Assembly: GCA_963709405.1 (NCBI GenBank)
Contig: CAVPXM010000046.1
Span: forward strand, 1-56,886
Reading direction: 5' to 3'
Source: an uncultured Nitrososphaerales archaeon
GTDB lineage: Archaea; Thermoproteota; Nitrososphaeria; Nitrososphaerales; Nitrososphaeraceae
DNA: 56,886 nucleotides
Under the pieces are notes generated by a model. The model worked only from the letters and a program-made list of their open reading frames with translations. It was not told the DNA's origin and did not search any database. The position numbers were made by a program, and so were the translations under genes. Numbering within the stretch: position 1 is the first letter of the stretch; the number at the start of each line of letters is the position of its first letter. Of this stretch, positions 919-45,224 are shown in pieces.

Positions 919-1347
919 ATAACTGGGACACCTATTATTATTCGCATACCACGGGAAAAATATGTAAACTATGGAATTGAGTCTAGACTAGGTTATGAAT
1001 ATCTATATTGGAGAAAGGATTACCCAATAGAACTCTTTATATGTCAGCTGTGGCAAAACTTGCTAAGAAAATACATAGAATATTTCAAGATTGATCTTGC
1101 TCATCTAAGGTCATCTGAAAATGTTGATACTGATGCTTTTCAAATTTTTAATAAATTTGTGTTTAAAAAACAAATCTCTACTAAGATAATAATGAAGAAT
1201 ACACAACATATTGTAATAGGAACCATTTGGGAATTTCAATTTCAAGGATTAGAGGATGTGGAGGTCATACAGTTTGCATTGGACGCTGGATTTGGGGAGA
1301 GGAATTCTATGGGTTTTGGTTTCATGAATCTAAAGAAAATGTCGTAG
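919..1347 (+). CDS. cas6: CRISPR-associated endoribonuclease Cas6, 5' truncated
   Basis: Frame of ORF 1060-1347 is open back to ITGTPIIIRIP at 919; C-terminal G-loop DAGFGERNSMGFG; adjacent to array. Confidence 0.92.
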   Translation: MTGTPIIIRIPREKYVNYGIESRLGYEYLYWRKDYPIELFICQLWQNLLRKYIEYFKIDLAHLRSSENVDTDAFQIFNKFVFKKQISTKIIMKNTQHIVIGTIWEFQFQGLEDVEVIQFALDAGFGERNSMGFGFMNLKKMS

Positions 1348-1439
1348 GTATGTCTGTGTTTATATATGAACTGCTTGACCGGAGGTTGACGTAACAAATT
1401 TATAATTTGATATGCTATTTTGAACGTAGAATAGTGGGG
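1348..1439 (+). promoter_or_regulatory. CRISPR leader with TATA-like box
   Basis: AT-rich 92 bp before repeat 1, containing AAATTTATAAT at ~1397-1407. Confidence 0.6.
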
Positions 1440-1734
1440 GTTTAAATCGAACTATTATAGGATTGAAAGGTATCTTCAAATACGGCTATGTATGCTGTGT
1501 ATAGTGGTTTAAATCGAACTATTATAGGATTGAAAGAATGCGGTCTGTTCGAAATATTGAACGTTTTTAGTCGTTTAAATCGAACTATTATAGGATTGAA
1601 AGATCGCGTGCTCACCGATTGGCTCTATGACCTTACCTGTTTAAATCGAACTATTATAGGATTGAAAGGCTTCACCCCACAACAGCGGTTGCTCGCACTC
1701 GCGGGTTTAAATCGAACTATTATAGGATTGAAAG
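1440..1734 (+). CRISPR. CRISPR array, 5 identical 30-bp repeats and 4 spacers
   Basis: GTTTAAATCGAACTATTATAGGATTGAAAG at 1440, 1507, 1573, 1639, 1705; spacers 37, 36, 36, 36 bp; 3' ATTGAAAG handle gives + orientation. Confidence 0.99.
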
Positions 1735-1818
1735 AGAGACTTGCCACTACCAGCCATGATACGTTTCTTGCCAACAGCATACAAATATGCTTATAATGAA
1801 AATACATGTCTCTAAAAC

Positions 1819-3349
1819 ATGGATAACACCATTGAGATACTGAGAACTGGTGATTTTTGGATAGATTTAGGAGTTTGTTACATATGGAGGCAGACTTCTA
1901 TCAAGAGGATCTAATATAAAGATAGATGAGGCGGAGAAAAGAATAGTCTCAGAAATCTTAATTGGCAACGATAAAGACGATCCAGACCTGATAGCAATGC
2001 TATATCCTTCTAGGATTGCAATAGAATATTCAGATAAAAAGGTATTAAGCGAAGAACTGACTGATATCTTAGAGACCACAAGGTCGCATTACCTAGGGAT
2101 CTCCAAAAAGGGTAGAGAAAAATGGGATAGGCAGGGACTATTTTTCAGTGCCGTTACACAAAGGAGATTGTTCTTTGAGCCTCCAAGATTAGACGTTCGA
2201 CGTAACCGATCCATTAAGTGCGCCTTTTGTGGATCAGAAAGATTTGCAATAAAACAGTCTGGTGCAACCAACCAGCCATTAATAGCAAATCCTGGCAAGT
2301 TCAGTAGCTTCTATTCTAATTTTAGAGGGGATATAAAAATTTGTGAAATGTGCAATTTTGTTAGCAAATTTTCACCCCTTTGCATTTTCTATGGGATATC
2401 AAAAAAGTTGCTCACTGCCATTATATTTGAAAGTAATGATCTTAGGGATCTCGATTCTGTTCTTAAAGAATTCAGTGAAATATCCACTGGATCAGATGGC
2501 TATAGGAACTTTCGAAGCACATTAGGTTTTACGAGATATCCTCTGGAAACGTTTCTCGACTTCTTATTCTCAATAATTCAAGGCATAGAAAGAAAGAAGG
2601 ATTTAGAAGGTTTAAACCTGATGATTAAAGGGCTAATAAGTAAGGTGCACATAATTCAGGGAACATTAGGTAAGGTATTGTCGTTAGACAAATACTACGT
2701 TATACCCAACCTACCACGTGTCTTAGACTTTATATCAATGTGCAGATGGTTAAGCAGGAACCAAAGGATGTATAACAGTATGCTGGAAACTGCAAAATGG
2801 CTGGTTTTAAAAAGAAAAAGAGAAAAAGATACGGACACGACAGTTAGGGAAGAATTTGCAAGACGGATCATTTACAACACAGATGCTACAGACCTAATAG
2901 AGGATTTCTTAATATCTCGTGTCGAAGACGAGAGACTGAATCAGTTTGTCAGGATAAATTTAGATAAATTTATCAAAATGTATTCTCTTAACGTATTGGA
3001 CTTGGATTCAAATCAGCTAAAGCTGGCTAAACTTCTTGGCAATATGGTTGGAAATCTTGCCGCTAAACAGGAAAAATCGTTGCTTTACAACCTTAGGAGC
3101 ATCGGAAATCTAGAGAGTTTCATAGAATTTTTTCATAGACTGTTGGTAAGATATCCGGATGAGATTAACCGGTTTGAACTGAAAGATAAACCATCTAATA
3201 ATGACTTCGACAACTTGCTGACCGCACTTGATAATACCAATTGGCGCACATATAAATCTCTTATCGGGATCTATTCAGCCTTAAAATTTAGTGAGGTAAC
3301 GAGTGGACTAGATGTTAAGAATCCAATTAATAATGTGATAAGCCAATGA
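1819..3349 (+). CDS. cas8: Type I-B Cas8 large subunit (Cst1/CXXC-CXXC type), with +1 frameshift near 1891
   Basis: CAFC and CEMC motifs, position before cas7. N-terminus MDNTIEILRTGDFWIDLG starts at ATG 1819 in another frame and joins RLLSRGSN of the 1997 frame. Confidence 0.85.
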
Positions 3350-4581
3350 GTTCAAACACAGAAAACCGTCCATCAAGAAGTATCTCTATAGGATTGCTAA
3401 TGCGAGTTGATATCGGAAACGTTAACTCTGGTTGGACCGAGGGGGTAGTGACAGCAATAAAGAAAGTCGAGAGGCCTGATGGTTATTTCCATCCCTACAT
3501 TTCGGGTCAGGCTTTAAGACGCTACATTCGTGATACAATGAAAGATATCATCCTTGATAATGAATCATATAAAACCTTCAAGATCTCCCCAGAGGAAACA
3601 GGGCAGGATAGGAAATCACCAATTATTACCAAAGGAGATCCTAGGAATTATTTTGATGACGATTTGTTTGGATTTATGATGGCAATTAAAAATACTTCTC
3701 AAAGGAAGGATAATACCGAAAAATCAAAAGATCAAAAAAAATCAAAGTCAAAACATCTACTGACAACAAATGAACAGACAATCAAAAATCAAAATCAACA
3801 ATCTTTGGTCAAAATACCTGCAGAACTAGATAATGTAGATACTACACAGATAAATAATGTCGGGAAGGACGAAGGAGGAGAATCTACTAGGAAAAGGACA
3901 TCACCCTTACGAGTATCACCTGCGTTTGGGTTGTTTAGACTAAATTCTGACAGAGACCTTGGCACACGTTCTGCAATGGAAGTCAAAGGTTCTGCTGATG
4001 CTGGAGGATCAATATTTGAAACGGAGATTACAAGTAATATCTTCAGATCTTCGTTATTATTAGAACTTGATCGTGTAGGTGTATGGAAAAGATATGAAAC
4101 TACTGATCGTAATGACTGGAAAAATGACCCGAAACGGAGGATTTCGCTTGAGTTATCAGAGCGTAAGCAAAGAATAAAACTGTTACTTGAATCTCTTAAA
4201 TACTTATGGGGAGGAGGAAGACAGTCCAGATTTTTGGTAGACCTTGTCCCAACATTTATAATTTATGCTAGAACGACGCAGAAATTTCCTCTTTTCTTGA
4301 ACTGCCTGAATGTTCATTATAACAATAGTAATAGCGATATTAATTATAGAATCAATACCGAGTTACTTCAAGAAACCATCAATGATTATTCAGATGTTAT
4401 CCAAAACATTATAGTGGGAATTCGTAAGGATATGTTTACCAATTCAGAGAGTGACTTTACAAAAATGTTTAATAATGTATCGGTGTTTCCTCCCGGAAAA
4501 GCAATTACTCTTATGACTACAGATATTGATAAGGCATCAATTGCTGAAACTAAAATTGCAAGTAATCAGACTAGGGGTTAG
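3346..4581 (+). CDS. cas7: Type I-B Cas7 (Cst2/DevR family)
   Basis: PYISGQALRRYIRDT, DDDLFGFM, RTSPLRVS, GGGRQSRFLVDLVP motifs. Confidence 0.93.
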   Translation: MSSNTENRPSRSISIGLLMRVDIGNVNSGWTEGVVTAIKKVERPDGYFHPYISGQALRRYIRDTMKDIILDNESYKTFKISPEETGQDRKSPIITKGDPRNYFDDDLFGFMMAIKNTSQRKDNTEKSKDQKKSKSKHLLTTNEQTIKNQNQQSLVKIPAELDNVDTTQINNVGKDEGGESTRKRTSPLRVSPAFGLFRLNSDRDLGTRSAMEVKGSADAGGSIFETEITSNIFRSSLLLELDRVGVWKRYETTDRNDWKNDPKRRISLELSERKQRIKLLLESLKYLWGGGRQSRFLVDLVPTFIIYARTTQKFPLFLNCLNVHYNNSNSDINYRINTELLQETINDYSDVIQNIIVGIRKDMFTNSESDFTKMFNNVSVFPPGKAITLMTTDIDKASIAETKIASNQTRG

Positions 4582-5304
4582 AGGTAGTTTTAATTCTTTC
4601 AGAATACCAACTGATATAAGATACCATAAAACATTTCATGTGCCGACCAAAACCACTCTCGTTGGATTGCTTGGGCAGCCTTTGGTTTAGAGGAAGTTGA
4701 GCTGGAAAAGTTATACGCGCGAATTCAGACAAATGCTTTATTGGAACGATATAATGGAATGGCAAATGATCTTTGGCTCATTACTAAGATCAAAACTGAC
4801 AATCTTAACAAACCAGAATCTTCTCTCGTATCCAGAGAAATGTTATTTGAACCTCAATACACCGTATATTATAATATAACTTCAAAGAAAGACGAGCAAA
4901 AAAATATAGAATATGATGACATCATCGCGGCTTTCAATGAACCTGAATTTCCGCTTACACTTGGAAGATCTGATGAAATGATAGAGGTCGTGGCCAAGCC
5001 TAAGATTATAGATTTAATACCTACAACTATCAATGAAAAACAATACTATAGAAATACAATATTACCCTTTAACTATAAGGATTATTTTGGAGGATATGAG
5101 AAAACTCTGATGAGGAAAGGATATACATTTAATCTTCCCCAAGTTTTATCCATTCCAATAGGTTTCGATATTAGTCAAACGGGATTAAGAAAACCTTCTT
5201 CAAATTTACAGATAACTTTGGTTTATGATACTGCTGTTAATATCATCAACAGGAATGATGGTTGGTTAGACAATGAAAACGGAAGATACGTATATTTCTA
5301 CTGA
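4541..5304 (+). CDS. cas5: Cas5, frameshifted at GGG 4673-4675
   Basis: FNSFRIP...HKTFHVPTKTTLVGLLG then AAFG in the next frame; C-terminal FPLTLGRSDE. Confidence 0.9.
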
Positions 5305-7570
5305 TATTCTTGCAAAATCAGATCCCGAGGAAACCCTTGCTGTTCATACTAATAATGCCATAACATATCTAAAACAAGTAATAAAATGGTATTTCAAAAA
5401 TATATCATATATTTCTAATTTGCTAGGGATTAGTTATGATGAAATTGTAGCCAGACTATTTGCGATGGTCTATCTGCATGATATTGGAAAATCAAACCCT
5501 TCATTTCAGAAATACATAAGAGAAAAGGAAGGTAGACAAAGGCCGTTTCCACCCCATGCATTGCTGTCTGCCCATTTTATTATCAATTCAGTTATTCCAA
5601 TCAGGATAAATGGAATTAACCAATATCCCGAAACCTTGGCAGTCTTATCCCACCATACGCCATATTATAATGATTTATATTTTGATTGTTGTTATGATGC
5701 AGATCCAGAGACTCAGTTTAATCTTCACAACAAATATGGTTTATTCTGTAAGAATTATGGGTTATTATTTTATGATTACTTACCATTTGCCTATGCTTCC
5801 TATTTTGGAAAAGAATTCCCATTTGTGATATCAAGGCCAGACTTAGGTAAGAAATTTGGCTCAACTCTTTCTACAATAAAGGAAACTTTACTTAGGGATG
5901 ACCGACCAAAATTTCAGCTCCGTTTTCTGCATTCTTTGTTTGTTTCGATTCTTCACTATTCTGATTGGCTATCAAGTGGAAAATCATACTTTAGATACTC
6001 TGAGGAAGCAATAACTCCACAATTAGAACTTCAGGCAAGATCTTATCCACAATTTAATGGTTGGTATGATTACCAGACCCAGGCTGCAGATATCAAAGAA
6101 AATATGCTTCTTTGTGCTCCTACCGGGATGGGAAAAACAGAAGCCGCATTATGGTGGGCCAATGCCAATCTTGAAGGAGGAAAGATACTATATCTACTTC
6201 CTACCAGAGTAACGGCAAACGCAATGTATGCTAGATTAAGGAGATTATTAGGTAATAATACTGGCATTTCGCATGGAACTGCTGTTCTCAGAATTGCCGA
6301 GGATGAGAAATGGAATTACGCTTCAATATTAACAAAGAGACTGATTTATGGCACATTCATGAGCCCCACTACAGTTGCAACAGTGGACCATTTGCTATTA
6401 TCGATTTTTAATTGGCGACATTGGGAAATGATAGAACAAAATGCTTCAAATGCTTCAATAATATTTGATGAAATTCATGCATATGATTTCTACACAATTG
6501 CGCTTATCTCTCAGATCATAAGATCTGTTTCCAGAGTTGGTAGTAGATTTGCATTCTTGTCAGCCACCTTGCCGAATTATCTAAAAGAATATTTCACGGA
6601 TACCCTGACCGATTGTCAACCTAAATTAGTGGAAGATAAACAGTTTAGCCAACTTGTCAGACATAGAATCAATTTTTTTGCTATGGATATAAGTAACGCG
6701 ATTGAAGATATCGTTTCTCAATATAGAATCTGTAAAAAAATATTGGTAATATTAAACACCGTAGACGGCGCTATAGACTATTATCTTAGAATTAAAGATT
6801 TCTTAATTTCTAAAAATGAAGATACATCTCATCTAGTTTTGTATCACTCAAGGTTTATAGAAAGAGACCGAAATAAAAAAGAAAGTATTATCGAGGATGC
6901 ACCAGAACAAAAGAACGGATTCATTGCAGTTACGACTCAGGTTGTCGAAGTCAGCTTGAATATTGACTATGATATACTCTTTACTCAGATTGCACCAATA
7001 GATGCCCTAGTCCAACGCTTTGGTAGAGTAAATAGAAAAGGAATGAAGTCTATTTCAGATGTCGGAAACATAATGATCTATAACTACGGACATACAGATC
7101 ATAAAGTCTATGGTGAAACTAACCTTGTTAGGGCAAGAGAAATAGTAGAAGCAAAGCTGGATAAAAGGTCGCCATCAGAAGCATATATCCACTCGCTTAT
7201 CGATAGTCAATATCCTATCGAGAATACCTTTGTGGAACTAAAAAAGGAAGAGAAAAATGTAAATACTGACCTAAAAATGCTGCGAAATGATCTATGGGAA
7301 ATCCAGACCTTATTATTAGGTGACAGAGACAACGCTCTGTATAGGATTGCGAGGACTAGACAAGAAAAAGTCCCTGATATCGAGATCATTCCTAGCATTT
7401 ATGAGAATGAGATTTCGACAAAAAAACACGCCATAGAATCAATGTATTATATAGTTAGAGTGCCTTTATACAAATTTGAAAAATGTATAAGATATAAGAC
7501 TGGCAACTCATTCATTCCGATTGGAGACGTAGACTACAGTATGGAATTAGGAGCAACGGGATGTCTGTAA
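5273..7570 (+). CDS. cas3: Cas3 HD nuclease-helicase
   Basis: LHDIGK, SHH, APTGMGKT, DEIH, SAT, QRFGRVNR motifs; 765 aa. Confidence 0.97.
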   Translation: MKTEDTYISTDILAKSDPEETLAVHTNNAITYLKQVIKWYFKNISYISNLLGISYDEIVARLFAMVYLHDIGKSNPSFQKYIREKEGRQRPFPPHALLSAHFIINSVIPIRINGINQYPETLAVLSHHTPYYNDLYFDCCYDADPETQFNLHNKYGLFCKNYGLLFYDYLPFAYASYFGKEFPFVISRPDLGKKFGSTLSTIKETLLRDDRPKFQLRFLHSLFVSILHYSDWLSSGKSYFRYSEEAITPQLELQARSYPQFNGWYDYQTQAADIKENMLLCAPTGMGKTEAALWWANANLEGGKILYLLPTRVTANAMYARLRRLLGNNTGISHGTAVLRIAEDEKWNYASILTKRLIYGTFMSPTTVATVDHLLLSIFNWRHWEMIEQNASNASIIFDEIHAYDFYTIALISQIIRSVSRVGSRFAFLSATLPNYLKEYFTDTLTDCQPKLVEDKQFSQLVRHRINFFAMDISNAIEDIVSQYRICKKILVILNTVDGAIDYYLRIKDFLISKNEDTSHLVLYHSRFIERDRNKKESIIEDAPEQKNGFIAVTTQVVEVSLNIDYDILFTQIAPIDALVQRFGRVNRKGMKSISDVGNIMIYNYGHTDHKVYGETNLVRAREIVEAKLDKRSPSEAYIHSLIDSQYPIENTFVELKKEEKNVNTDLKMLRNDLWEIQTLLLGDRDNALYRIARTRQEKVPDIEIIPSIYENEISTKKHAIESMYYIVRVPLYKFEKCIRYKTGNSFIPIGDVDYSMELGATGCL

Positions 7571-8684: not shown

Positions 8685-8938
8685 TTTACTATTTTGGTAT
8701 AGACATATCTTATAAAATCTTTCTTCTTCGATAGGCTTTTGGATATCTCATTTTACAATAAAAACGCATGAGTATACTGTTGATGATATACAAGGAATTC
8801 AATCGCCGCATTCCAGACAACAGGCATTTTCATATCATCTTCATTTAATTCACGCATATCCTGAACTAGATGAAATACGTGTCCAATTTATGTTCTGCAA
8901 TCTGTGGATGATCTCAGGGTCGTATGTTACAGGGTTAT

Positions 8939-9593: not shown

Positions 9594-10594
9594 TCAGCCA
9601 TTTTGTTTTTCGCTATTCTGGCTTTCTGTTTGAGATGTATTCCCAGCATAGTAAACATCACAGTTACGCCAATTGTCGCTAGGCTGAATGGCATTTAAAT
9701 CAGACGCGTCAAACACTGCAACATCCGCAGAAATAATGTCGCGAGCAATCTCATTGAAAAGATGTTGTCCGTAACCTGCTGACAATGGTTTAAAAACTAA
9801 ATCTATGTTGAGAACATCCGAATTTTTGTTTTTATAATCTCTTATGGTATCTTCGAACATTTTACGTATATTTTTCACTAATTCCTCAGCATTATAGTAT
9901 TTTGATTCGAATTTATATCCAAAAACTACAAATAACTTTCCTCGATTATTTTTTCGCTCTAGAACTATCTCCCAATCTATATCGGTAAATCCAAAAGGTG
10001 ATCCTACAGGAGTCGGAGGAAGTGATACCCTCTTTCCTTCAGATACCTTCCTATCTTCGCTTGCCTCTAACGACTGTTCTCTAAATTGCCTTACGTATTC
10101 ATACTTTCCTCTCGGAGTCAATTTGACATCGGTAAAACTTGAATGGGTAAACTCGGCACCCCATTTTTTGTTGAAACAAAACCTGCTTCCTCTAAAACTT
10201 CAATAGAGTCATTAATTTCAATTGGGGTGAGATCAGTTAGTTCCTGTAATTTACGGCCATCAACTGATGCTGGTCCTATACCAACCTTGGGGCGAGTTGC
10301 AAGACTTCGTAGGATTAGTTCAACATTGCTTTCGATCGTCCTATTTAGTCTATTCTTTCCTCTCCTAGTAATTCTAAATTGACCATTTATTTCACATTCT
10401 CTTACCAAACCTTGGCTAACAAGTTCTTGGACTATGGTTGGGATTACGTCAGGGCTAAATGCGGTTAATCCCATTGCATTAAATATTTCAGTGCTTCCAA
10501 CACACTTGGCTTCATCGCCATTAACATATTCATTGAGCGATTTCAAGAATCCATTACTTAGTCGTTTCATATCATTTTCATCTAATTCCCGCAT
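9594..10594 (-). pseudogene. Tandem winged-helix plus TIR/nucleoside-deoxyribosyltransferase-like protein, frameshifted and 3' truncated
   Basis: ORFs 10118-10594 and 9594-10121 fuse with one extra base in T6 10164-10169; wHTH-type FRITRRG and KLTPRG; IARDIISADVAVFDASDLN breaks off at ~9695 before the expected NVxxE helix. Confidence 0.55.
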
Positions 10595-10724
10595 GTCCTC
10601 AACTAGATGAAATATGTCTACAATTTATATTCTGCAATTTGAAGAATCGCATAATCTTATGCATGTTCCTTCAGATTCGCAGTAAATACTAAATCCGTAG
10701 CCTCACAATAACTAATAACAAACG

Positions 10725-11495
10725 TCACTTTCAAAGATGTGAAAAACGAGTTAGTGTGAAAACAATTCACCAGAATTTACTCTATGAGAGATTAAAAAAT
10801 AAACCATTTTTGGTTATGGGATAAGGAGCAACACAAGAAGACAGATATTGAAAACGAATGGAGATTGTTGCTTCAATCATATTATCAGGCTACCACGGAA
10901 GGAAACGATCGAAAAACCAATCTTTGAGTATCAAAAATTGTTCTATGATAACTTGCTAGTTTCAAATATAGATAGTCAATCAAAGTATGATTATAAACAC
11001 AAGCATCTATGGGTTAAAAAGGCTACTGGGCTAGGAGTTATAGAATTCTTTCTTAAATTGACGGTTTGGTTATGCTCGAAGGATGATACTCATCATAACG
11101 CACAGATGTGTATAGCAACAGGTCCGAATCAAGATATTGCTATCAAACTTATCAAGAGAATGAAGATATATTTGAACCTCATAACATCACATTTACAAAT
11201 AAAGAAATAGTATGGGAATTAAATGGCTGCACTATTGAGGCGTATCCTTCAAATCACTTGGATGCTTATCGCGCTTTAGATAATCGTAAATTCATTTTGT
11301 TAGATGAAGCAGACTTTTTCAGAAAATCACAACAGGAAGATGTTAGACATGTTTCAGAACGCTATATTGCAAAATCAGATCCATATATAGTGATGGTATC
11401 TACTCTAATGCACCTGGTGGTCTTTTCGAAAAGATAGAAAAGGAACCAGAAGAGACATGCATTTACAAACGCCTCAAACTGGATTATACTTATAG
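10725..11495 (+). pseudogene. Terminase large subunit-like ATPase domain, multiply frameshifted
   Basis: KKATGLG (Walker A-like), MCIATGPNQDIA, FILLDEADFF (Walker B), IVMVST (motif III). Confidence 0.75.
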
Positions 11496-11595
11496 AATAG
11501 TTAACGAATCGCAAGACATGATTCAAGTTATTGATAGAAATCCAGACAATCTGACGATAAAATGGATTCCAAGAATCTTAACATCAGGAGAACAA
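11488..11595 (+). repeat. Diverged direct repeat of 18509-18616 (3' end of Cys-rich gene)
   Basis: ACTTATAGAATAGTTAA and ATGATTCAAGTTATTGA shared; both encode RIVNESQDMIQVID. Confidence 0.85.
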
Positions 11596-11743
11596 GTCAG
11601 TCATTTCCGAAAACTTTTGTCATAACAGAACTCGTTGTGATTAATTGTAGTTATACACAAAAGAGAAATTATGAAGAAAATTGTTAAGCAGTAATGCATT
11701 GCACCGCACTGCATACGTAGACAGTATATCTAGTGGTCATTAA

Positions 11744-11941
11744 GTGGATGTTGTAAGTGAATATGACAAGATGATATTAGAAAAAACTACTAGGACTAAA
11801 TCCCAGGTCGATGGAATAGTGCGATCGGCTGGTATTGACGGCAGCGCTGGCAGGATATATGTTCCCAAGGCGTGGATCGGTAAAATGGTCATAGTTAGAC
11901 TGAAGGAAGATAAGACCGCTCAAGGGGGTGAGAAAAAATAA
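11744..11941 (+). CDS. DUF2080-family (AbrB-like) small protein
   Basis: GSAGRIYVPKAWIGKMVIV; stop overlaps the next start. Confidence 0.8.
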   Translation: MDVVSEYDKMILEKTTRTKSQVDGIVRSAGIDGSAGRIYVPKAWIGKMVIVRLKEDKTAQGGEKK

Positions 11942-12408
11942 TGTTTGGCAGAGACAGGGGCGAGAAAAAAGAAGTGAAGAAGGAACAGGAAAAAGCATAC
12001 GAAGTATTCGACTGTGAATACATGGGTGGACACATGTTGTATCCGAAAAAGACAGATGCAACGGTATATCTATTCAGCAGCCACTTCGAAATTAGATTCG
12101 GACTTGTCCACAAGAAATTCATTGAAATTCCATATGAATCGATAGTCGGTATTGAGAATGAAGATGAAAGCAGGATTACCAAGACAAGAATATTACTTAC
12201 ACCACTACTGGTAGGTCTACTCTGGAAGAAGAAATTCCGCTATACCGTCATAGAATACGAAGACCAGTTTGGAATGAAACAAGGTGTTGTCATAGACTTT
12301 CATCGCAAGGCAGAGAAGGCACAACAGACAATCTATCTAAAAATGGTTGAGTCTAGAAGCAGGGCAGAACATAACCTAGTGTTTAGAAAAGGATGTGAGA
12401 TACAGTGA
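11941..12408 (+). CDS. Hypothetical PH-like domain protein, paralog of 15028-15417
   Basis: YxGGH, IPYxSIxxIEN, RITKTR, LLWKKK, DFHR shared with 15028-15417. Confidence 0.7.
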   Translation: MFGRDRGEKKEVKKEQEKAYEVFDCEYMGGHMLYPKKTDATVYLFSSHFEIRFGLVHKKFIEIPYESIVGIENEDESRITKTRILLTPLLVGLLWKKKFRYTVIEYEDQFGMKQGVVIDFHRKAEKAQQTIYLKMVESRSRAEHNLVFRKGCEIQ

Positions 12409-13232
12409 AGGAAGAGCACAAACTTGTTGCATTAGGAATTGCTTTGTTATTGCTCAGTTCGGTGCTTGTTACTGGCTTAGGAATGACTACATGGGTTGAG
12501 GCAAAGAAGAAGAGTTCAGACAGCGGTAGCGGTAGCAGTGATTCAGGTTCAAGTAGTGGAGGTAGTAGCGATTCCAGTAGTGGAGGTAGTAGCGATTCCA
12601 GTAGTGGAGGTAGTAGCGATTCCAGTAGTGGAGGTAGTAGCGATTCCAGTAGTGGAGGTAATAGTGTGGGCTCAGATAAAGGTAGCAGTGATAGTGGTAG
12701 CACAGGTAAGACAGACAGTGGTGATAGTGAGCCACCAGGGCCAAGCAAGGAAGATACGAAGAACTTGGCTAGCGATACACCAACGACTGATGCAGCACTA
12801 AAGGCAGTAGAGGGAAGCCCTGGAAAACCAGCTAAGGGAGAAGGAATTGCTAAGGTTCCAGAACAAGGCTGGGTAGATGGAAGATGGACTGGTGGAAGTC
12901 AGGAACGGTTTGAGAAAGGCCCTAAAGGTGATGGCGTAATTCCACCTGGATGCACGCCTGGCGACTGCAAGCCCCAGACTCATATACCAATACATGATGT
13001 CTTTACGAAATCAGACAAACACAAGATACCAATTGTGCATCAAACAATCATCATCGTAATCAAGAATAGAATACATCACAGCAACAGTGGAGGAGGACAT
13101 CACACACATACCCCAGCAGGAACATATTGGAGCAATGAAGATACGGCAACCTTGAATATGATTTGGAGCAATGGAATCAAGAAGGGTGAAGATCCAGTGG
13201 TAGATGCATTCATGACAAGAATGATAGAGTAA
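12405..13232 (+). CDS. Secreted Ser/Gly-rich, His-rich low-complexity protein
   Basis: Signal peptide, SSSGGSSD repeats, overlapping start with upstream gene. Confidence 0.75.
   Translation: MKEEHKLVALGIALLLLSSVLVTGLGMTTWVEAKKKSSDSGSGSSDSGSSSGGSSDSSSGGSSDSSSGGSSDSSSGGSSDSSSGGNSVGSDKGSSDSGSTGKTDSGDSEPPGPSKEDTKNLASDTPTTDAALKAVEGSPGKPAKGEGIAKVPEQGWVDGRWTGGSQERFEKGPKGDGVIPPGCTPGDCKPQTHIPIHDVFTKSDKHKIPIVHQTIIIVIKNRIHHSNSGGGHHTHTPAGTYWSNEDTATLNMIWSNGIKKGEDPVVDAFMTRMIE
12552..12660 (+). repeat. Intragenic 24-bp tandem repeat, 4.5 copies
   Basis: AGTAGTGGAGGTAGTAGCGATTCC x4 plus a 13-bp partial copy. Confidence 0.95.
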
Positions 13233-13909
13233 TAGATTAGGTTAGGTTACCAAGCAACTTGACCTTTTCCATATTTTGCATATGAAACAGAACTCCTTAG
13301 AACGCTTCTTTTTATTCTATGACTAGGTTTACGTTGAGATATTTCGTTTTTGTTTCTCCATATCTATCTCCTTCCACTCAATGTCTTTGCTTATGTCTTT
13401 ACCCTTTATTCCACAAGTCCTTGAAGTCCTTGCTCTTTGAGTATTCTTTTGGTTTCCTTCATCTGGTCTCTGGCCTTTGTTGTGGTTCTGGAGTGAGAAC
13501 TATTCTTTTGCTTCTGGTTCTAAGCATTGGTCATGCTATCACTTCTTTTTCTTGTATGCTGCAGGATGCTGCTTACGGTCTATTGATGTAACATAAGCGG
13601 ATGCACGTTCCATTGACCACATGAACACAAGTCTGGCGGCAGCGGTAGTGACTATGGTAAGGTAACTATGACTCAGAAAGAATATGCAATGATAAAGATG
13701 ACAAGAACCATTTTATCCTCCCAATCTAGAAAATTCCAAATGGCTACCAAACTTGCTAAGTAACAAATGATGAAAGACTCCATGATGAAAGAGACTCACA
13801 CAGCATGAAGATATCCATCTTGGGCATTTCAACCATCTAGTTTTTTATAGAGCAAACATTTTGATTGACAAGGAATTAGAAGAATACGCTCTGCAATATC
13901 TAGAGTTCA

Positions 13910-14425
13910 ATGAGCATAGATATACTTAATAGATACATTTGTTCCGCATGTGTTATGGGAATGAGAAGGATTCTAACGATGCCATTTGCACTTATACTTG
14001 TGGCCGCACTGACACTAAGTTTAGGTCTGACACTGTTGGTGCCGGTTGGGGTGATGAAGATTGCTGCGGCCCAGCCATCAGTTAAGGAGGTTAGTGCACC
14101 AGGGCTAAAGCCAAATGAATATTACATTTTTACCCAAGAACTGAACGCTGACGAATCTAAACTTGGCGTGCCAGTTGCAGTATTCACACTGACAAATATT
14201 ATAGTGCATAAGGGAGATAACGTTACAATTCATTTCTACAATACTGCAGATGAAGCTACCGACAGACACACATTCAGTATGCAATCACCTTACAAGATGG
14301 ATCATGATCTAGCAGGCGGACAGAATGCAACATTTAGTTTCAAGGCTGATACAGTAGGTGGTTTTACATACTATTGTAGATATGATCTACCCAGCATGAT
14401 AGGCCACTTAGAAGTTCTGCCATAG
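13910..14425 (+). CDS. Secreted cupredoxin-domain protein
   Basis: VHKGDNVTIHFYN, RHTF, FTYYCRYDLPSMIGHLEV; true start probably downstream. Confidence 0.85.
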   Translation: MSIDILNRYICSACVMGMRRILTMPFALILVAALTLSLGLTLLVPVGVMKIAAAQPSVKEVSAPGLKPNEYYIFTQELNADESKLGVPVAVFTLTNIIVHKGDNVTIHFYNTADEATDRHTFSMQSPYKMDHDLAGGQNATFSFKADTVGGFTYYCRYDLPSMIGHLEVLP

Positions 14426-14489
14426 CATCTTGATAACAGCACAGCATACTGATGCCGCGGTGTGGTTGGGAATTACTATTCCTTACTGG

Positions 14490-14726
14490 AAAGTAAGCCA
14501 ATTTGTTCGTAAAAAGACTTGAAAATTGACACTGACTTTTGTAAATATCATGAACATGGATTTCAACGTCCTCGTATTCCCTAAAATGTTTGTTCTTATA
14601 CTGCTGTGTCCTAATTTCGAACTGCCGAATATCTAATTCGTGGATTATAACGCCCGAAATGACATAGTAATCAATGTTATCTTTGGGATTAGGACTACCA
14701 GAATCATCAACATACATGATATACAA
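14490..14726 (-). pseudogene. DUF3800-family (RNase H-like) protein, N-terminal fragment
   Basis: MYIMYVDDSG, YYVISGVII, EIH motifs; truncated against the cupredoxin gene. Confidence 0.65.
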
Positions 14727-15027
14727 TAATAATTCTTTTAATAGTTGACCACAGACAAAATTAAATCTATTATTGTCAGAATGATCTAAAGGCGACTTTT
14801 CCTTTCATTTTTGTCCTAAAATCAAGAAGTCTAATATAGATACCAGGCAAGGCTTATCGGTAAGCGACATGAGTTATTTGTTAATGTTAATGTTAGTTAT
14901 CTGTCCCAGTATCAACGAGTCTAAACATAGCAGGCCACTAGTTGGCACATTTCCGCTCATTACATCATGCTCTACCTCTAAAGATAAAATTTAAATCGAT
15001 GCTTTCAACATCAAATAAATAACTGGG

Positions 15028-15417
15028 ATGCCATTTGGTTTTGGTAAGAAACATGAGAAGCCTGAGCAGAAGTTTGATATAAAATATGTCGGCGGTCATA
15101 AAGCCTTTCCTAAAGGAAAAGATACTGAGGTTTTAATTTTTCCAGATAGACTCGAGATAAAGGCAGGCATAATAATACCATATAGTTCGATCACAGATAT
15201 AGAAAACATGGAGGATCACCGGATAACAAAAACGAGGGCATTTCTTACTCCGTTTTTCCTTGGATTATTCTGGAAAAAGCATTATCTATATACAGTTATA
15301 GATTACAATGACGGAAGAGATATCCAATCAATTGTGCTTGATTTTCATAGGTCGGCAGAGGAGGCGCAGCGGCTAATTTACGAACGGATGCTGGACTCAG
15401 AACTCCGTCCCTCTTAA
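15028..15417 (+). CDS. Hypothetical PH-like domain protein, paralog of 11941-12408
   Basis: Direct sequence similarity over nearly the full length. Confidence 0.7.
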   Translation: MPFGFGKKHEKPEQKFDIKYVGGHKAFPKGKDTEVLIFPDRLEIKAGIIIPYSSITDIENMEDHRITKTRAFLTPFFLGLFWKKHYLYTVIDYNDGRDIQSIVLDFHRSAEEAQRLIYERMLDSELRPS

Positions 15418-15875
15418 CATATGAAAATCCTATCTATGGAATAAAAATACAATATCCTTCGACGTGGGACAAACAAGAAAATAGCACAAGACAAGACACA
15501 GAAACTGACATTATTACATTCTTTCCTCCAGTTACGAACTCAAGTGCGAGTCTCGACATATCAATAGATGATCTTACAGATAAAAAAGATATATCTTTAG
15601 ATCAATATGCAAATGACGGAATTGTCAATTTACAACAAACTCTTAAGGGTTTCAAATTGATCGGATCAACTACAAATAATGTTCTTGCTGGATTAGATGC
15701 ATACAAATTGGCATATAGCGACGTAGATAAGAAGATCGTTTTTAAAAATATGGAAATTGGAGCAATAAAAGGAGATAAGGCGTATATTTTAACTTTTGCA
15801 GCAGGAGAGAATGAATATCAAAAATATTTGCCAGTTATACAGGAAACGGTTAATTCAGTTCAAATAACAAAATAA
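15414..15875 (+). CDS. PsbP-like domain, no own start (fragment or frameshifted fusion to upstream gene)
   Basis: Frame of ORF 15657 is open upstream: LTYENPIYGIKIQYPSTW...LAGLDAYKLAY...KAYILTF...YQKYLPVIQETVNS. Confidence 0.75.
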   Translation, partial: LTYENPIYGIKIQYPSTWDKQENSTRQDTETDIITFFPPVTNSSASLDISIDDLTDKKDISLDQYANDGIVNLQQTLKGFKLIGSTTNNVLAGLDAYKLAYSDVDKKIVFKNMEIGAIKGDKAYILTFAAGENEYQKYLPVIQETVNSVQITK

Positions 15876-16446
15876 ACCAATTTCATAACACAAAGATTGA
15901 GAACCAAAAAATTATGACTAAAAGTCACGTATTATTTTATGTGACATGCTTATTTCGTGTGCCAAATCCATCTAGGGTATAACCTTCCATCCTCTTACAT
16001 GGTCATAAAGAGAGCGGATCAATTATGCCCTTAGTGGTCAGATCGAAGCGATTGACCTAGACCTCGCCTAATAAATGATACCTATTAAAAGTATCATTGA
16101 TGTGAACTTTCAAGAGAAAGAGAGGCAATGATTTAATCTTACATACCAGTCACATTGAAAGAAGGATAACGGATCCATAAATATTTATTTTTAAGAAGGC
16201 ATTGTTTAGAATAATTCTAAATAAAATATATCTGAAGTGTGATAACAGAATTAAATACTTACATTTCTTAAAAACCTTATATCTATGCAATATTATTAAT
16301 ACCTACCCCTGGACGATAATCATCATACCTTGCAGTTATCATATCTGGGCCCCTGTTGTCATAAAGGCGGTAAAGTCTTGCCAAATAATCAAGCAACAGC
16401 AGCGTCTGGAGTTGTATTAATATAAAACATATCTTATAGACAAGCA

Positions 16447-16844
16447 ATGAATAAAGTCACCAACCTTATCGTATTATCAGCAATAATATTGATAATTACA
16501 TCGACAATGACTGTGAGAGTAAAAGCACAGGGTCTTGATGCAATGGTTACAGAGTTAAAGAATAAAGGGATGCATTAAAGACAGAAATAGCAAACACCAA
16601 TTTAGCAAATACTGGTAAGGTGCAGGATTTGATTAACAAAGTGTATTACTATCAGGGTCAAATATCAGTAATGGGCGGCGGCACATGGGCTTATCTTCAT
16701 GATGTGCAAGATGCATTAATTGCAAAAATTAAAGCAACCGGACAATCAGGATTTACAGTAGCAGAACAAGCATCTATCGATTCATTTGCAAGTGATGCCG
16801 CAAAGAGTAAGCAAGAACATCCGAGTTCGAATGTATTTGGTTAA
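16447..16844 (+). CDS. Hypothetical secreted helical protein, frameshift near 16567
   Basis: Signal peptide MNKVTNLIVLSAIILII joins the frame of ORF 16620-16844. Confidence 0.5.
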
Positions 16845-17377
16845 TCAAGCAAGCAAGCATGGGCAACTCGAGTATTCAGCGTTCCCAAATTGAGTTCCAT
16901 TCCTAAAATATGGGTAGTTTAAATGGGAGTTTTGTCGGTATGTATGACATAATTCTAACAAAAGTAGGATAGTGGGTGGTCTGATAACAGTTTCATATCC
17001 CAGATATCAACACATGTTGACAGGTATATGATGAATATATTACGCAGGTTAGATATGGATCCAACTTTGGAAATCGTGCCGTATTGGACAAAGGGAAATC
17101 CTATCGGTTAGTCAGTTACCAAATTCATTAATGACTTAACCATTATGTGCTTGTGGAATACACCGACAAAATTCTCTGAAACTCAAGAATAACATTTGGC
17201 GGAAGGTTTCCATATTATCTCATAGACGTAGATTTGAGTGAGAAGAATACTTATTACAAGAACTGAATTGAATTTATTTCAAGTCTAATTGAAGAAATAA
17301 AAGTATGTAAGTTTAAGTATATGCAACGTGTGAAAATTGCAAGACCACCACTAAATGAGCGTGAATAAATGCAATAA

Positions 17378-17885
17378 ATGAGCACAAAAACTGCAAGTTG
17401 AATGGCGAAGAACCAAAGTGTTAGAGATGATAAGTAAGGGTAATTCTCAAACTGAAATAGCAGGAATTCTTCAAGTGGATTTGTCTATAATTAGTAGAGA
17501 TGTATCCTATCTAAGGCAACAAGCAAAACAAAATATCAAAAAATACATTGATGAACGATTACCTGAAGAATATGAAAAATGTCTTGTTGGCTTAACTTCA
17601 ATTCTGAAAGAAGCATGGAATACTGCTACTAACACTGAAGACAAACGAGAAAAGATACAAGCATTATCATTAGCAAAGGAGTGCTATGGAATGAAACTAG
17701 ATCTACTTACAAATGCTACAGTGATAGATGATGCTATTAGGTTTGTCTCAGATAAGCAACAAGACTTTTCAAGAGAAATAAGATTAAAAAGTGACAAGAA
17801 TATTCCTGAGCCAAACAGTGCTATGAGTGTTTATAATTCCAGTCAGTTTTGCTCAAGAACACAAGAAGATGTTGTTACATGCTAA
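17378..17885 (+). CDS. HTH protein, putative terminase small subunit-like
   Basis: WRRTKVLEMISKGNSQTEIAGILQVDLSIISRD HTH; ATG 17378 out of frame at an A-run; directly precedes a terminase fragment. Confidence 0.65.
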
Positions 17886-18081
17886 AATGTTGTTAGAAGA
17901 CCAACGTGGTTTAGTAGCAATAAATCCTAAATTTGATAAACTGATCACATCGTTAAGAACAGCAGTTGAGAAAGGTGAAGGAACTTTAGACAAGGAAGCA
18001 ACTTCCTACAACGATATTTTCGATGCTTTTAGACTCGCATTACATCATTATGAGAAAAAACCTGCAAGGAATGTGGTATGA
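17827..18081 (+). pseudogene. Terminase large subunit-like C-terminal nuclease fragment
   Basis: IPVSF...KLITSLRTA...LDKEATSYNDIFDAFRLAL with terminal DxxDA acidic motif. Confidence 0.7.
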
Positions 18082-18087
18082 TTTGAA

Positions 18088-18619
18088 ATGATAAATGTTA
18101 ATGATTCCGTTGTAAATCGCCATTGTTATGTTTGTGGATATGTTCACGAAAGCAAGGAAGATTATAGAATCTGCGATTATTGTCTGCAGCACAAACGTTG
18201 GGTATATCTACCAAGACCAGTATATTACAGATATGGTTTTGCTAAACATTTAGTCTCAATCTGTGAAGATTGTAATGTATACGAATTTGAATGTCTAAAA
18301 GTTAAGCCAAGAATTATTACTGTTCCTACGCTGATCAGTGCTTTTGAATCAATCTGTAGGATTATCAAAAGATCAGGTGATAATATTGACTACTATGAAG
18401 CCGTAAAGATGGCATATTTCGAAAGTAAGGAGTTAAGAGAATATTTTTGTTCCGATGTCACCGACATAAAACAGATAGACAAAAAGCCTCAAAACATTAT
18501 GGCCTTTCACTTATAGAATAGTTAATGAATCTCAAGATATGATTCAAGTTATTGACATAAATCCAAATGATCTATTACTAAAATGGGTTGATAGTGCTTT
18601 AACATCACGAGAACAATGA
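18088..18619 (+). CDS. Cys-rich (3x CxxC) hypothetical protein, probable frameshift near 18505
   Basis: CYVC, CDYC, CEDC; continues as TYRIVNESQDMIQVID in the adjacent frame. Confidence 0.6.
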
Positions 18620-18897
18620 TAACAATTTAGGAATACTCTCATTAAGACAAAAAGAAGTTTATATTGAGTTTGGTGTAAAAATTTATACAACTTAGAACTG
18701 AGTATCAAAGAGAGCACATCTGCCAAAAAAAATGGCATAAATTTTAGTAATTTCGATCCAAAATATCATTCAATCTTCAAATTAGGACGAGATTATAAAT
18801 CGGATTCTGTTTTTCATTTTCCTTCTTTACTCACATATTCAGATAGTCATATAATTATGTCAATCTTAATTAGGACTTAACGAATTCTACTGACAAT

Positions 18898-20137
18898 ATG
18901 TTATCCTGGGAGTTATCCCCTATTGCAGACGAACCTGTAAATGATGCGACGCTACTCGGACTTGGAGAAAGAATCGATGCTTTGTATCGCTTCCTTTACT
19001 CTCATGATATTATTACACCGTCAGTAATTGCTATCAATGGCGAATGGGGATCTGGAAAAACAAGTCTAATATACACTCTGCAGAAAAAGATTGAGGCAGA
19101 TACTAATGACAAGAAAATTATTACAGTGTCATTTGATGCTTGGAAATATGAGTATTCAGATCCTGCTTTAGGACTATTTTATAAAATTGCAAATAAACTT
19201 GCATCACAAAAACAAAAGCGAAACGAAGAATTTAAGAAGACAGCAAGAGAGGTCATAGAGTTGGGCAGCAGATATATTTACTAGACATTATACTGGAATG
19301 ACTTTAGATGAAGTTAAAAAGCATATTAAAAATGATGCTCTGCCAGCAGAAGATCTTAGTAAAAAGTTAGCAGACCTAGTAAAGAAAACTTCAGGCGACA
19401 AAAAGATAGTTGTATTTATAGATGACCTTGATAGGTGCAGCCTAGAAAATGTTCTTACAGTCCTTGATGCCTTGAAATTATTCTTAAATATCAACAATTT
19501 TATTTTTATCATTGCTGTTGATATTTCAAAGATTAAACTTGCGTGGTCATATAGATATGGAAAAATCGATAATAAATCTGATGAGGGATTAAAATATCTG
19601 GAAAAAATCATCCAGATTGAAACTAAAATAAATAGTGCGAATACAGAACAGATTAAAGAATATGTTCGGCATTTAAATCAAAATATACCACCAGTCTTTA
19701 TTGATCTGATTTCTGTAACAGAAGTTAAGAATCCCAGAAGAATCAAGAGGTTGTTAAACTTGGTTGCATTAAGAAAATATTTTGGTGATGAGAAGGTAGG
19801 AAAACTAGAGATAGTGTTTCTATGGACTATATTTGAAGAAATAGTAGGGCCAACTAGAGCGTTTAACTTTTATAAGCAAGCGAATGGTGCAAGTCAATTT
19901 TATGATTTTCTTAACCGATTTAATAAAATTGAAATTAGACCTGGCATGGGTGATGATGACAAGCGTCGACTAATTATGGAAGGTAAAGGTTATGACCACT
20001 ACGTAGATATATTACACGATAATAAGATGCTGGGATATATGGAGCATAGCGCAAAGATATTAGACACACTCAGGATGAATAAACAAGACATTACAAACAT
20101 AATCGAAGAAGTCGTAAATTATTCAAGTGAAACCTAA
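18898..20137 (+). CDS. KAP-family P-loop NTPase, frameshift at GGG 19263-19265
   Basis: GEWGSGKT, FDAWKY, VVFIDDLDRC, YLEKIIQ, NPRRIKR. Confidence 0.92.
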
Positions 20138-28765: not shown

Positions 28766-29931
28766 TAAGTCAAGTGTCACATTAAATGTCATTATTCCAT
28801 CTTCCAAATCTTTTGTCTAGATATTCTGATACTGCGGTTTTCTGCTCTTCTATATTTTCATAAAACCTATTCGCACATACATGTGACTTTATCAGCTGGT
28901 TTACTTTTCTTTCATTTGGATTTAGGTATGGAGCCTTCTTTGGTAGGTGGATTATAGTTAGCCAGTCTTCTCCTTTCTGTGTATTGATATAATTCCGTAC
29001 CATTAGGCTTACATGGTATGAAGCGTTATCCCATATGAGTATGAGTCTTTTACACCAATCATTTTTCATAATGTTTATCTTGAGATTCTCCAGATGGTCG
29101 ATAGTATTCGTAGAATTCATTCTATCATAGAAATCATACATCAACTTCTGATCTGGCCATAGCATGGATATGTATGCAGAGAACTTCTTTCTACTTCCAT
29201 CATGTTCTATCCTTTGTTGCTGGCCTTCAAAACTCATAGATCTTCGTATGCAAGGTTTCTGTGTTATCGTAGTTTCATCTTCAAATACTAACATCACTCC
29301 TTTTTTTCAGAGCTGATGCTACACGTTTATAATCTTCCACCCTCTCTTTTCCTTCTTCATAATCAGGTCCATGTAATAGTTCCAATTTTGGTCTTTTACA
29401 CCTAATCCCCATATCCTTAGTTATTCTTTGCAGATGTTTGAAACTGATTGATATTCCAAGCTCATCTGTAAGACATCTTGCAAGTGACCTTAGACTCCAT
29501 GTATTTCTAAGATAACCAAAGATATGGGGATCATTAAATAATGCAGAAAGGATAACCTCTTTGTTTTCATCTGTTATACGTGAATTCAGTCCTCTCGGTC
29601 TCTTCTTTATCCTTACCACTCCTATCTCACCATGAGTAAACGCAACAACCCATCTTTGTACAGATCGAATATTGACTTCGTATTCATGTGCTATGTCTTC
29701 ATAAGATCTACCTTCAACTTTTTGAAGTATAGCCAGTACCCTACGATACTCCTTCTTGTTAGTTGTATTATTCATGAGTGATTCTAGACTTGTTTTCTGT
29801 CCCCGGCTTAGATTCAACTTAGAAGCACGTCTCACATGATGGGAATATCCTACATCTGTTAAGCTTTATCTATCTAAAGATCTAGACTGTGCAATAAAAA
29901 TAATATGACATATAACTAGACACTTCACTTA
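28766..29931 (-). mobile_element. IS630-family element
   Basis: Inverted ends TAAGTCAAGTGTC / GACACTTCACTTA (1 mismatch, terminal TA); two-ORF transposase. Confidence 0.9.
28782..29835 (-). CDS. IS630 transposase (HTH ORF + DDE ORF, A7 slippery site 29301-29307)
   Basis: FEDET, LIWDNASYH, PYLNPNE; LKKR/KKGV overlap typical of programmed -1 frameshift. Confidence 0.92.
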
Positions 29932-45080: not shown

Positions 45081-45140
45081 GATGTTTATATGAATAGCCA
45101 GATGTGTATAGTAACTGCTCCTAATCAAGACATTGCTATA
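45081..45140 (+). pseudogene. Terminase-like remnant
   Basis: DVYMNSQMCIVTAPNQDIAI versus DTHHNAQMCIATGPNQDIAI at ~11085-11144. Confidence 0.75.
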
Positions 45141-45224
45141 ACTCAAATTTAACTAATGAAAATACGTAATGTATATCCATAAGAAGAGAATAGCCTATAT
45201 TTGAATAAATATGTGTAAGTGTTA

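Follow-up and report, generated by a model that had tools for sequence, protein, structure and literature searches.

NitKor-E1, a 15.4-kb element integrated in Ca. Nitrosopumilus koreensis AR1, encodes a small terminase subunit (TerS), a large terminase subunit (TerL), a tyrosine integrase, and no other viral gene; excerpts of the article that describes it call it enigmatic and 'likely a relic', and state that non-viral elements had not previously been known to encode terminases (Krupovic et al., 2019, PMC6563490). The same excerpts report a second integrated element, NitAQ6f-E5, whose TerL gene is split into two open reading frames (ORFs) (PMC6563490, supplement file 1), and a TerL search that returned five hits in 20 genomes, none of them in the lineage considered here. 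We analyzed a stretch of 56,886 nucleotides (nt), designated the window, which corresponds to contig CAVPXM010000046.1 of assembly GCA_963709405.1 from an uncultured Nitrososphaerales archaeon and contains two independent dead copies of a module made of a helix-turn-helix (HTH) gene, a TerL gene, and a gene for a Cys-rich, zinc-ribbon-like protein. By gene content, NitKor-E1 is the closest precedent, since TerS and TerL are its sole viral hallmarks in the excerpted description and it carries a tyrosine integrase, a combination that the present family, with its TerS-like protein, shares. However, NitKor-E1 and NitAQ6f-E5 are described there as single elements, probably relics, and belong to other families, whereas the window copies belong to a monophyletic TerL lineage that is multi-copy, evolves under purifying selection, and was found in 30 of 36 Nitrososphaeraceae genomes.

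Two further groups of elements are relevant to the comparison. According to the excerpted text of a 2025 preprint, no archaeal virus satellites other than pSSVi and pSSVx had been described earlier (10.1101/2025.02.15.638363). In that description both are of the plasmid type and are packaged by helper spindle-shaped viruses (fuselloviruses); unlike the present family, they have no terminase. SaPI/PICI, cf-PICI, P4, and PLE elements are phage satellites cited in the same excerpts (10.1101/2025.02.15.638363). Like the present family, they combine an integrase, replication genes, one or several packaging genes, and cargo in the absence of a full virion gene set. An integrase and a replication module of the PICI type are found in relatives of the window copies, not on the window contig itself. 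The SaPI/PICI, cf-PICI, P4, and PLE elements are bacterial; classical PICIs encode TerS only and use the TerL of the helper, and cf-PICIs additionally encode capsid and portal proteins. The present family differs from PICIs by the association of both a TerS-like protein and TerL with no head gene.

The first copy consists of a TerL pseudogene (10665..11493, + strand) that retains codons 1 to 250, encoding the ATPase domain, and carries at least five single-base indels. In the following, C numbers designate contigs (the window is C46), L numbers TerL loci, G000 the present genome, and other G numbers related genomes. With the intact paralogue of G000:C31 (493 amino acids [aa]) as a tblastn query, residues 1-250 matched positions 10724-11493 in three frames; a TerL profile also matched in three frames (profile positions 41-251 of 485). 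The closest relative of copy 1 is located on C86 (40733-41562; 87% nt identity across 10665-11493), and comparison with this sequence placed the indels at about 10742, 10807, 10851, 11168, and 11404. Two stretches of the ATPase domain, VKKATGLGVIEF and FILLDEADFF, are still readable. Codon 250 of TerL is fused in frame to the last 35 or so codons of the Cys-rich gene (11488..11626, + strand), as the earlier note on this DNA had described. The junction lies at the hexanucleotide ACTTAT (Thr-Tyr), which is found in frame in both parents (TerL '...DYTY' and Cys-rich '...PFTY'), and this is the signature of a microhomology deletion. Thus, a deletion at 6 bp of microhomology removed TerL codon 251 and everything after it from copy 1, nearly to the end of the Cys-rich gene, and frameshifts were acquired later. 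Within the span of copy 1 (10665-11595), the sequence starting at 11488 forms a 108-nt direct repeat with positions 18509-18616 (80% identity), and the Cys-rich tail also matches C13 and C20. A fourth copy, on C13 (55680-56000), reads uninterrupted through the 108-nt stretch ('...IDKDFKALWPFTYRIVNES...'), and this stretch is therefore the genuine 3' end of the Cys-rich coding sequence. A role of the repeat as an attachment (att) site bracketing an element was ruled out, as the repeat is coding sequence and its two copies are only 80% identical.

The second copy comprises the HTH (TerS-like) gene devoid of its last 25 or so codons (17350..17826, + strand), the last 80 or so codons of TerL, encoding the end of the nuclease domain (17827..18081, + strand), and the Cys-rich (CxxC...CxxC) gene (18088..18622, + strand), an arrangement that agrees with the gene content assigned to this copy by the earlier note. 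Homology to C42, C51, and C37 begins at 17350. The HTH profile matched positions 11-147 of 175 at 17382-17882, and the tblastn match covered residues 17-148; the ORF at 17418-17885 passes from the HTH gene into out-of-frame TerL sequence. The TerL profile matched positions 411-482 of 485 at 17827-18078, corresponding to TerL codons 411-489 or thereabouts, codons 1 to about 410 being deleted. Over 17828-18470, copy 2 is 89.7% identical at the nt level to C86 42103-42751. The Cys-rich ORF extends from 18088 to 18516 and its remainder is in the +1 frame owing to a frameshift near 18483 relative to C13; its product is 75-81% identical (aa) to that of the C86 copy, has no Pfam or PHROG family, and has no Atlas match above a score of 0.83. 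Thus, the DNA missing from copy 2 begins at the 3' end of the HTH gene and runs to about TerL codon 410.

Each of the two copies is interrupted by stops in every frame, and both are pseudogenes on the + strand. The earlier note had proposed that the copies together reconstruct a complete module. This cannot be upheld for TerL, since residues 251 to about 410 are present in neither. The region of overlap is only 80% identical, and each copy is 87-90% identical to C86, which indicates two old, separate copies rather than the two halves of one gene. The accompanying suggestion that cargo is shuffled by recombination between the copies is not supported, as the 108 nt at 80% identity are the sole stretch that they share. 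A third, short TerL fragment ('NSQMCIVTAPNQDIAITQI') is present at 45081..45164 on the + strand (tblastn, 64% identity over 28 aa; blastn, 88% over 41 nt). Profile matches across the window features reached E-values of 1e-41, and these features are therefore not due to chance. We hold the anatomy of both copies and their assignment to the family with high confidence. The window itself contributes only these two dead copies, which record the decay of a module by microhomology deletions and then by frameshifts.

The nature of the module was assessed with its intact homologues. On C31, the gene for a 174-aa HTH protein and the gene for the 493-aa TerL, which comes after it, are 9 nt apart. The intact TerL matched PHROG 2 (terminase large subunit) over residues 66-485 (E=2.6e-17), and the Pfam family Terminase_6C is precomputed on many of its homologues. 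Sequence searches against PDB chains returned nothing at E<=1, and Pfam gave only sub-threshold matches to DEAD and Terminase_6N for the window fragments and the intact protein. The AlphaFold model of the intact protein, obtained with an 18-sequence alignment, had a mean pLDDT of 86, and its best Foldseek matches in the PDB were T4 gp17 (E=2.3e-17), HK97 TerL, Sf6 gp2, and D6E TerL, in each case over both domains (about 460-500 aligned columns). Residues K91, G96, D187, D318, D373, D476, and D479 were invariant in the 18 sequences, and E188 nearly so. We take these residues to be those of the Walker A and B nucleotide-binding motifs and the acidic residues of the nuclease site. On the evidence of this model, intact family members are true two-domain terminases combining an N-terminal ASCE ATPase and a C-terminal RNase H-like nuclease.

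The identification of the HTH protein as a small terminase is less certain and its main argument is the position of the gene upstream of TerL, an arrangement that also occurs in several genomic loci. The predicted structure (pLDDT 85) shows an HTH followed by a long helical hairpin. Among 48 viral loci, the HTH profile matched one ORF located at the TerS position (E=1.1e-4); the 163-aa protein encoded upstream of TerL at the viral locus L039 had no clear kinship to the HTH protein (E=0.03).

The TerL lineage is very abundant in soil Nitrososphaeraceae. The copy count proposed in the earlier note gave, by profile searches of the present genome (4.83 Mb in 100 contigs, about 36% G+C, 91% complete), about 15 TerL loci, of which two are intact (C31 and C51), one is truncated at the 5' end (C62), one is frameshifted (C86), and the rest are fragments; HTH loci numbered about 28. 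TerL matches were detected in 34 of 61 related genomes; of the 36 that belong to the family of the present genome, 30 had a match. There were up to 28 matches per genome among the 61, mostly partial or containing stops, and about 16 of the 150 TerL matches listed were near full length and free of stops. At least 2865 TerL relatives had E<=0.001 among 8000 candidates scored in a large protein collection. In the TerL tree, the multi-copy genomic sequences formed a single clade, apart from the TerLs of viruses in which the gene is linked to a portal gene. Thus, the lineage is monophyletic, and most of its copies decay into fragments like the two copies of the window. The ratio of nonsynonymous to synonymous substitutions (dN/dS) among the intact TerL paralogues, also suggested by the earlier note, was 0.07-0.10, with dS values of 0.29-0.88. 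Low dN/dS at high dS indicates that the copies are old and that each was kept functional for a long time. In the intact C51 module (L003 5167-6206 and 10227-11093), an IS630-like insertion interrupts the HTH gene, and a fragment of a family B DNA polymerase gene is located about 5 kb away.

Such a distribution raises the question of whether the copies are relics of ordinary head-tailed proviruses in which only the conserved TerL is still recognizable. The decay of the window copies, a genome full of broken mobile-element genes, and the excerpted reading of NitKor-E1 as 'likely a relic' (Krupovic et al., 2019, PMC6563490) speak for this explanation, as does the faster divergence of structural genes relative to TerL. 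A scan of IMG/VR with a single protein found no relative, whereas an alignment-based scan identified 48 loci of tailed viruses of Nitrososphaeria (L036-L083) with TerLs 33-48% identical to those of the family; the gene at the TerS position was weakly similar in a few cases. Among 47 IMG/VR loci of the TerL cluster, 39 had one portal cluster about 2.5 kb downstream and four had another; protease and major capsid clusters then follow, with PHROG support. The present family is devoid of this arrangement, and the elements and the nearest tailed viruses share the terminase module alone.

Profiles of 28 viral clusters, used to search 43,884 six-frame ORFs of the present genome, matched only TerL (14 ORFs), the host MCM, and methyltransferase-type genes; within the window, they matched TerL only. 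The portal, major capsid, and protease profiles had no match in the present genome, at the loci of its relatives, or at 80 metagenome loci. The first of the two portal profiles had no match in the 36 family genomes and the second had one, as opposed to TerL in 30 of them. The first profile matched six of 24 genomes from other families of the order, indicating that the search was able to find portals. In addition, no portal or major capsid PHROG was found among 121 TerL-neighbor proteins (of 176 selected), PF04860 had no match in the present genome, and a Pfam scan of 61 of the 62 non-overlapping ORFs of at least 75 aa in the window revealed no portal, capsid, tail, integrase, or replication gene. 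The statement of the earlier note that none of the portal, capsid, tail, or replication genes is recognizable in the window was thus borne out. The capsid model PF05065 is insensitive here, as it found nothing in 37 genomes including portal-positive ones, and this would also be compatible with relics. Searches of the present genome with phrog_9232 and phrog_544 were uninformative, since the controls were silent as well. No portal, major capsid, or maturation protease gene was therefore found near TerL, and intact homologues occur outside complete proviruses, where they are followed by unrelated small genes, defense genes, or integrases. Together with the purifying selection on the intact copies and the monophyly of the lineage, these results fit poorly with relics of ordinary proviruses, which we consider improbable.

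Genes located near TerL in relatives point to integrative elements. Proteins from 103 TerL loci (23 genomic and 80 metagenomic) were clustered, and the most frequent neighbors were the HTH protein (34 loci), a tyrosine integrase (18 loci), and an unknown 787-aa protein (11 loci), followed by a cupredoxin (6), the Cys-rich protein (5), and a PsbP-like protein (4). Pfam and PHROGs also identified a second integrase type and, among replication genes, a D5-like primase-helicase, MCM, PriX, and a DNA primase. In G017, a well-assembled genome, L027 and L030 have in common the gene order Rep, TerS-position gene, TerL, zinc-ribbon gene, and integrase. At these two loci, a protein of about 153 aa with two CxxC pairs is encoded directly after TerL (L027 10589-11050 and L030 9465-9923); it may be the counterpart of the Cys-rich protein of the window, with which no sequence similarity was detected. 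The combination of TerL in most family genomes, portals in at most one, and integrases beside TerL supports the proposal, made in the earlier note, of a family of capsid-less integrative elements. Its corollary that these elements keep only packaging genes does not hold, since the fuller relatives carry a tyrosine integrase and a primase-helicase, MCM, or PriX.

In our best reading, the window copies are what is left of integrative elements that lack capsid genes, retain a TerS-like/TerL pair, and are probably packaged by a helper virus; we consider this reading, taken as a whole, about as likely as not. In the mechanism that we envisage, live elements would integrate by means of their own tyrosine recombinase, and their replication would depend on a primase-helicase or MCM that they encode. 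A related tailed virus would co-infect the cell and supply procapsids, and the TerS-like/TerL pair of the element would cut element DNA and pump it into these helper procapsids. If so, the elements would be satellites of tailed archaeal viruses, and a satellite-like or transduction-promoting function may be envisaged. We consider this use of helper capsids somewhat less likely than not.

Several observations weigh against packaging by a helper. The data offer no support for encapsidation, and neither a helper virus nor a portal or capsid gene was found in the present genome, which is 91% complete. The virome check proposed in the earlier note was negative, since IMG/VR contains no member of the clade (best identity, 48%), as was the search for circles, since none of the 80 metagenome loci had identical termini. 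No att site was found, the search at L027 giving only short imperfect repeats. Many TerL-bearing contigs are short, and only 18 of the 80 metagenome loci extend at least 3 kb downstream of TerL. DNA homology between close paralogues (C31, C51, C62, C13, and G006) is limited to about 2.2 kb covering the HTH and TerL genes, with unrelated flanks. The intact modules of C31 and C51 have no intact integrase or replication gene within about 9 kb, which a simple whole-element model does not predict. Two virion-type matches were also obtained, both weak: L022 6037-7275 matched head-maturation-protease families (E=2.8e-7) beside a much stronger match to an unknown family, and L002 5294-5764 matched a tail-spike family (E=1.8e-5, with no passing stretch). 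Concerning the HTH protein, the small terminases of G20c and P74-26 were the top Foldseek matches of the model, only at E=0.15-0.5, and Z scores of 7.4-7.8 are at the level of noise for helical models. Its members matched a TerS family in PHROG in one case out of 25 (E=2.9e-4) and a family labeled 'RNase E' in 17 out of 25, and of the 54 metagenome loci whose upstream DNA is long enough to judge, only 23 have the HTH gene immediately before TerL.

Public sequencing runs were also searched with the C31 module. None contained half of the sampled words of the module; two soil runs from a single study came closest, with fractions of 0.28 and 0.24. Four runs yielded only short contigs with 90-99% identity to the module and no joints suggesting excision. 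One RNA library gave small contigs over the HTH gene and the N-terminal part of TerL, which does not by itself show transcription.

The main rival to packaging in helper capsids holds that selection acts on the HTH-TerL pair as such, which would then not serve to package its own element. As a module for defense or competition, the pair might act against infecting tailed viruses by cleaving the viral DNA or occupying the procapsids; it might initiate the packaging of adjacent host DNA into viral heads and so promote transduction; or it might process the DNA of replicating elements. This would explain why homology between paralogues ends at the gene pair and why the pair is intact on C31 and C51 without a nearby integrase or replication gene, and it is consistent with strong purifying selection. 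Defense genes are, moreover, frequent neighbors: CRISPR-Cas, KAP NTPase, and DUF3800 genes in the window, and genes for GmrSD-HEPN, NurA/HerA-like proteins, and a type I restriction subunit at L022. At the latter locus (G018:C146, 10647-19698), an intact TerL is followed by GmrSD-HEPN, NurA-like, HerA-like, and type I restriction R-subunit genes, which form a defense island. However, relatives repeatedly carry integrase and replication genes next to the pair, and heavy decay, with about two intact copies among about 15 loci, suits a selfish element better than a gene beneficial to the host. There is, in addition, no experiment or known example behind such a role. We consider selection of the pair for its own sake to be unlikely, though clearly less so than relics of proviruses.

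A multi-copy family with unrelated flanks directly outside a cassette of 2.2 kb could also suggest a transposon-like unit in which the RNase H-fold nuclease of TerL acts as the transposase. The homology between paralogues starts 130-190 nt before the HTH gene and ends at the stop codon of TerL. The alignment of the ends of four copies revealed neither terminal inverted repeats nor target duplications, and homology stops at the gene borders. The dS values between paralogues (0.3-0.55) are not those of recent copies of one another. Finally, the full packaging-ATPase domain is kept, and both domains match solved terminases. A transposon fits the data poorly and appears very improbable.

The two window copies are separated by 5.78 kb (11596-17377). 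This interval was described in the earlier note as cargo including secreted, PH-like, cupredoxin, and DUF3800 genes. Pfam confirmed the cupredoxin and DUF3800 genes, and the PH-like assignment is a lead only. The cupredoxin gene (13882..14457, + strand; ORF 13910-14425; Cupredoxin_1, E=8.4e-7) encodes a protein with an N-terminal membrane or signal segment. At the nt level, the gene is 97.6% identical to C42 9229-8654, and on C42 the HTH gene starts about 400 nt further on. The order cupredoxin, HTH, TerL is also found in another genus (G012:C98; L024 3797-4267), with a cupredoxin 81% identical (aa) to that of the window. The cupredoxin gene is thus a recurrent upstream neighbor of HTH-TerL rather than random cargo shuffled between copies, as had been supposed, and it is probably part of the element of copy 2. 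The DUF3800 gene (14364..14726, - strand; E=8.5e-5, profile positions 1-99 of 149) is truncated and overlaps the 3' end of the cupredoxin gene. Two small ORFs on the + strand, at 11941..12408 and 15028..15417, are paralogues (46.5% identity) without any Pfam match; the nearest named Atlas clusters are bacterial PH families with scores of 0.84-0.86. The interval also contains a gene for a Ser/Gly-repeat protein with an N-terminal hydrophobic segment (12405-13232) and a PsbP-like fragment (15657..15875, + strand; Pfam PsbP, weak, E=0.078) that resembles L093 4835-5401.

The two copies are flanked by other genes in the window. Upstream, type I CRISPR-Cas genes (1060-7570) encode a C-terminal fragment of Cas6, a CXXC_CXXC Cas8-like protein, Cas7/DevR, and Cas3 according to Pfam; no CRISPR repeat array was found anywhere in the window. 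A 77-nt direct repeat (8828-8904 and 10565-10641; 87% identical) lies just upstream of copy 1 and encloses three minus-strand ORFs, including one for a winged-helix protein (10118-10594). Directly 3' of copy 2, a gene for a KAP-family P-loop NTPase (18898-20137; Pfam) is split into ORFs of 128 aa and 279 aa. Insertion-sequence genes are located at 28782-29835, 41401-41985, 50586-51542, and 55091-55695 (IS630-like DDE_3 and HTH, rve integrase core, and IS4/IS5-type DDE_Tnp_1 fragments), and housekeeping genes were also among the Pfam matches. Queries with integrases and replication proteins gave no match on the window contig. Neither Rfam families nor tRNA genes were found in the window, and tRNA genes were likewise not found at nine TerL loci. 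Positions 1-925 have a G+C content of 62%, as compared to about 35% in the rest of the window, and code for the C-terminal portion of an ATPase of the ABC-transporter type ('...LLLDEATGALDS...'); this segment resembles the chimeric end of a contig or a piece of foreign DNA attached to archaeal sequence.

The present genome is a mosaic in which segments of 0.3-1 kb are 85-99% identical to segments of other contigs (for example C31 15599-21000). One piece of about 314 nt is present on more than 20 contigs. One type of tyrosine integrase accounted for 70 high-scoring segment pairs on 31 contigs, only one of these pairs covering at least 85% of the query. The mosaic of segments and the integrase matches point to massive decay of mobile elements in this genome.

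The interest of these observations lies in the family, better intact examples of which are located outside the window. Our full-text literature searches, whose scope did not extend to bioRxiv supplements, returned no description of this TerL lineage of Nitrososphaeraceae. TerL is treated as a marker of viruses of soil ammonia oxidizers in the excerpted text of Lee et al. (2024, PMC11849493). The lineage is far commoner in soil ammonia oxidizers than recognizable proviruses, with TerL in 30 of 36 genomes and a portal in at most one. If the family is capsid-less and helper-dependent, counts of proviruses and 'viral contigs' based on TerL would need to be re-read in these organisms. More tentatively still than the mechanism itself, soil ammonia-oxidizing Nitrososphaeraceae may harbor a large, undescribed family of satellites of head-tailed viruses, which would carry their own replication genes and a whole terminase but no head genes, use helper procapsids, and move copper proteins and defense genes between hosts. 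If this is true, these elements would be the first known example in Archaea of satellites of tailed viruses and, among all known satellites, the first to bring a whole terminase but no capsid gene. They would add a route for the transfer of copper proteins and defense genes among nitrifiers, and would provide a concrete system to test hyperparasitism of tailed viruses in Archaea.

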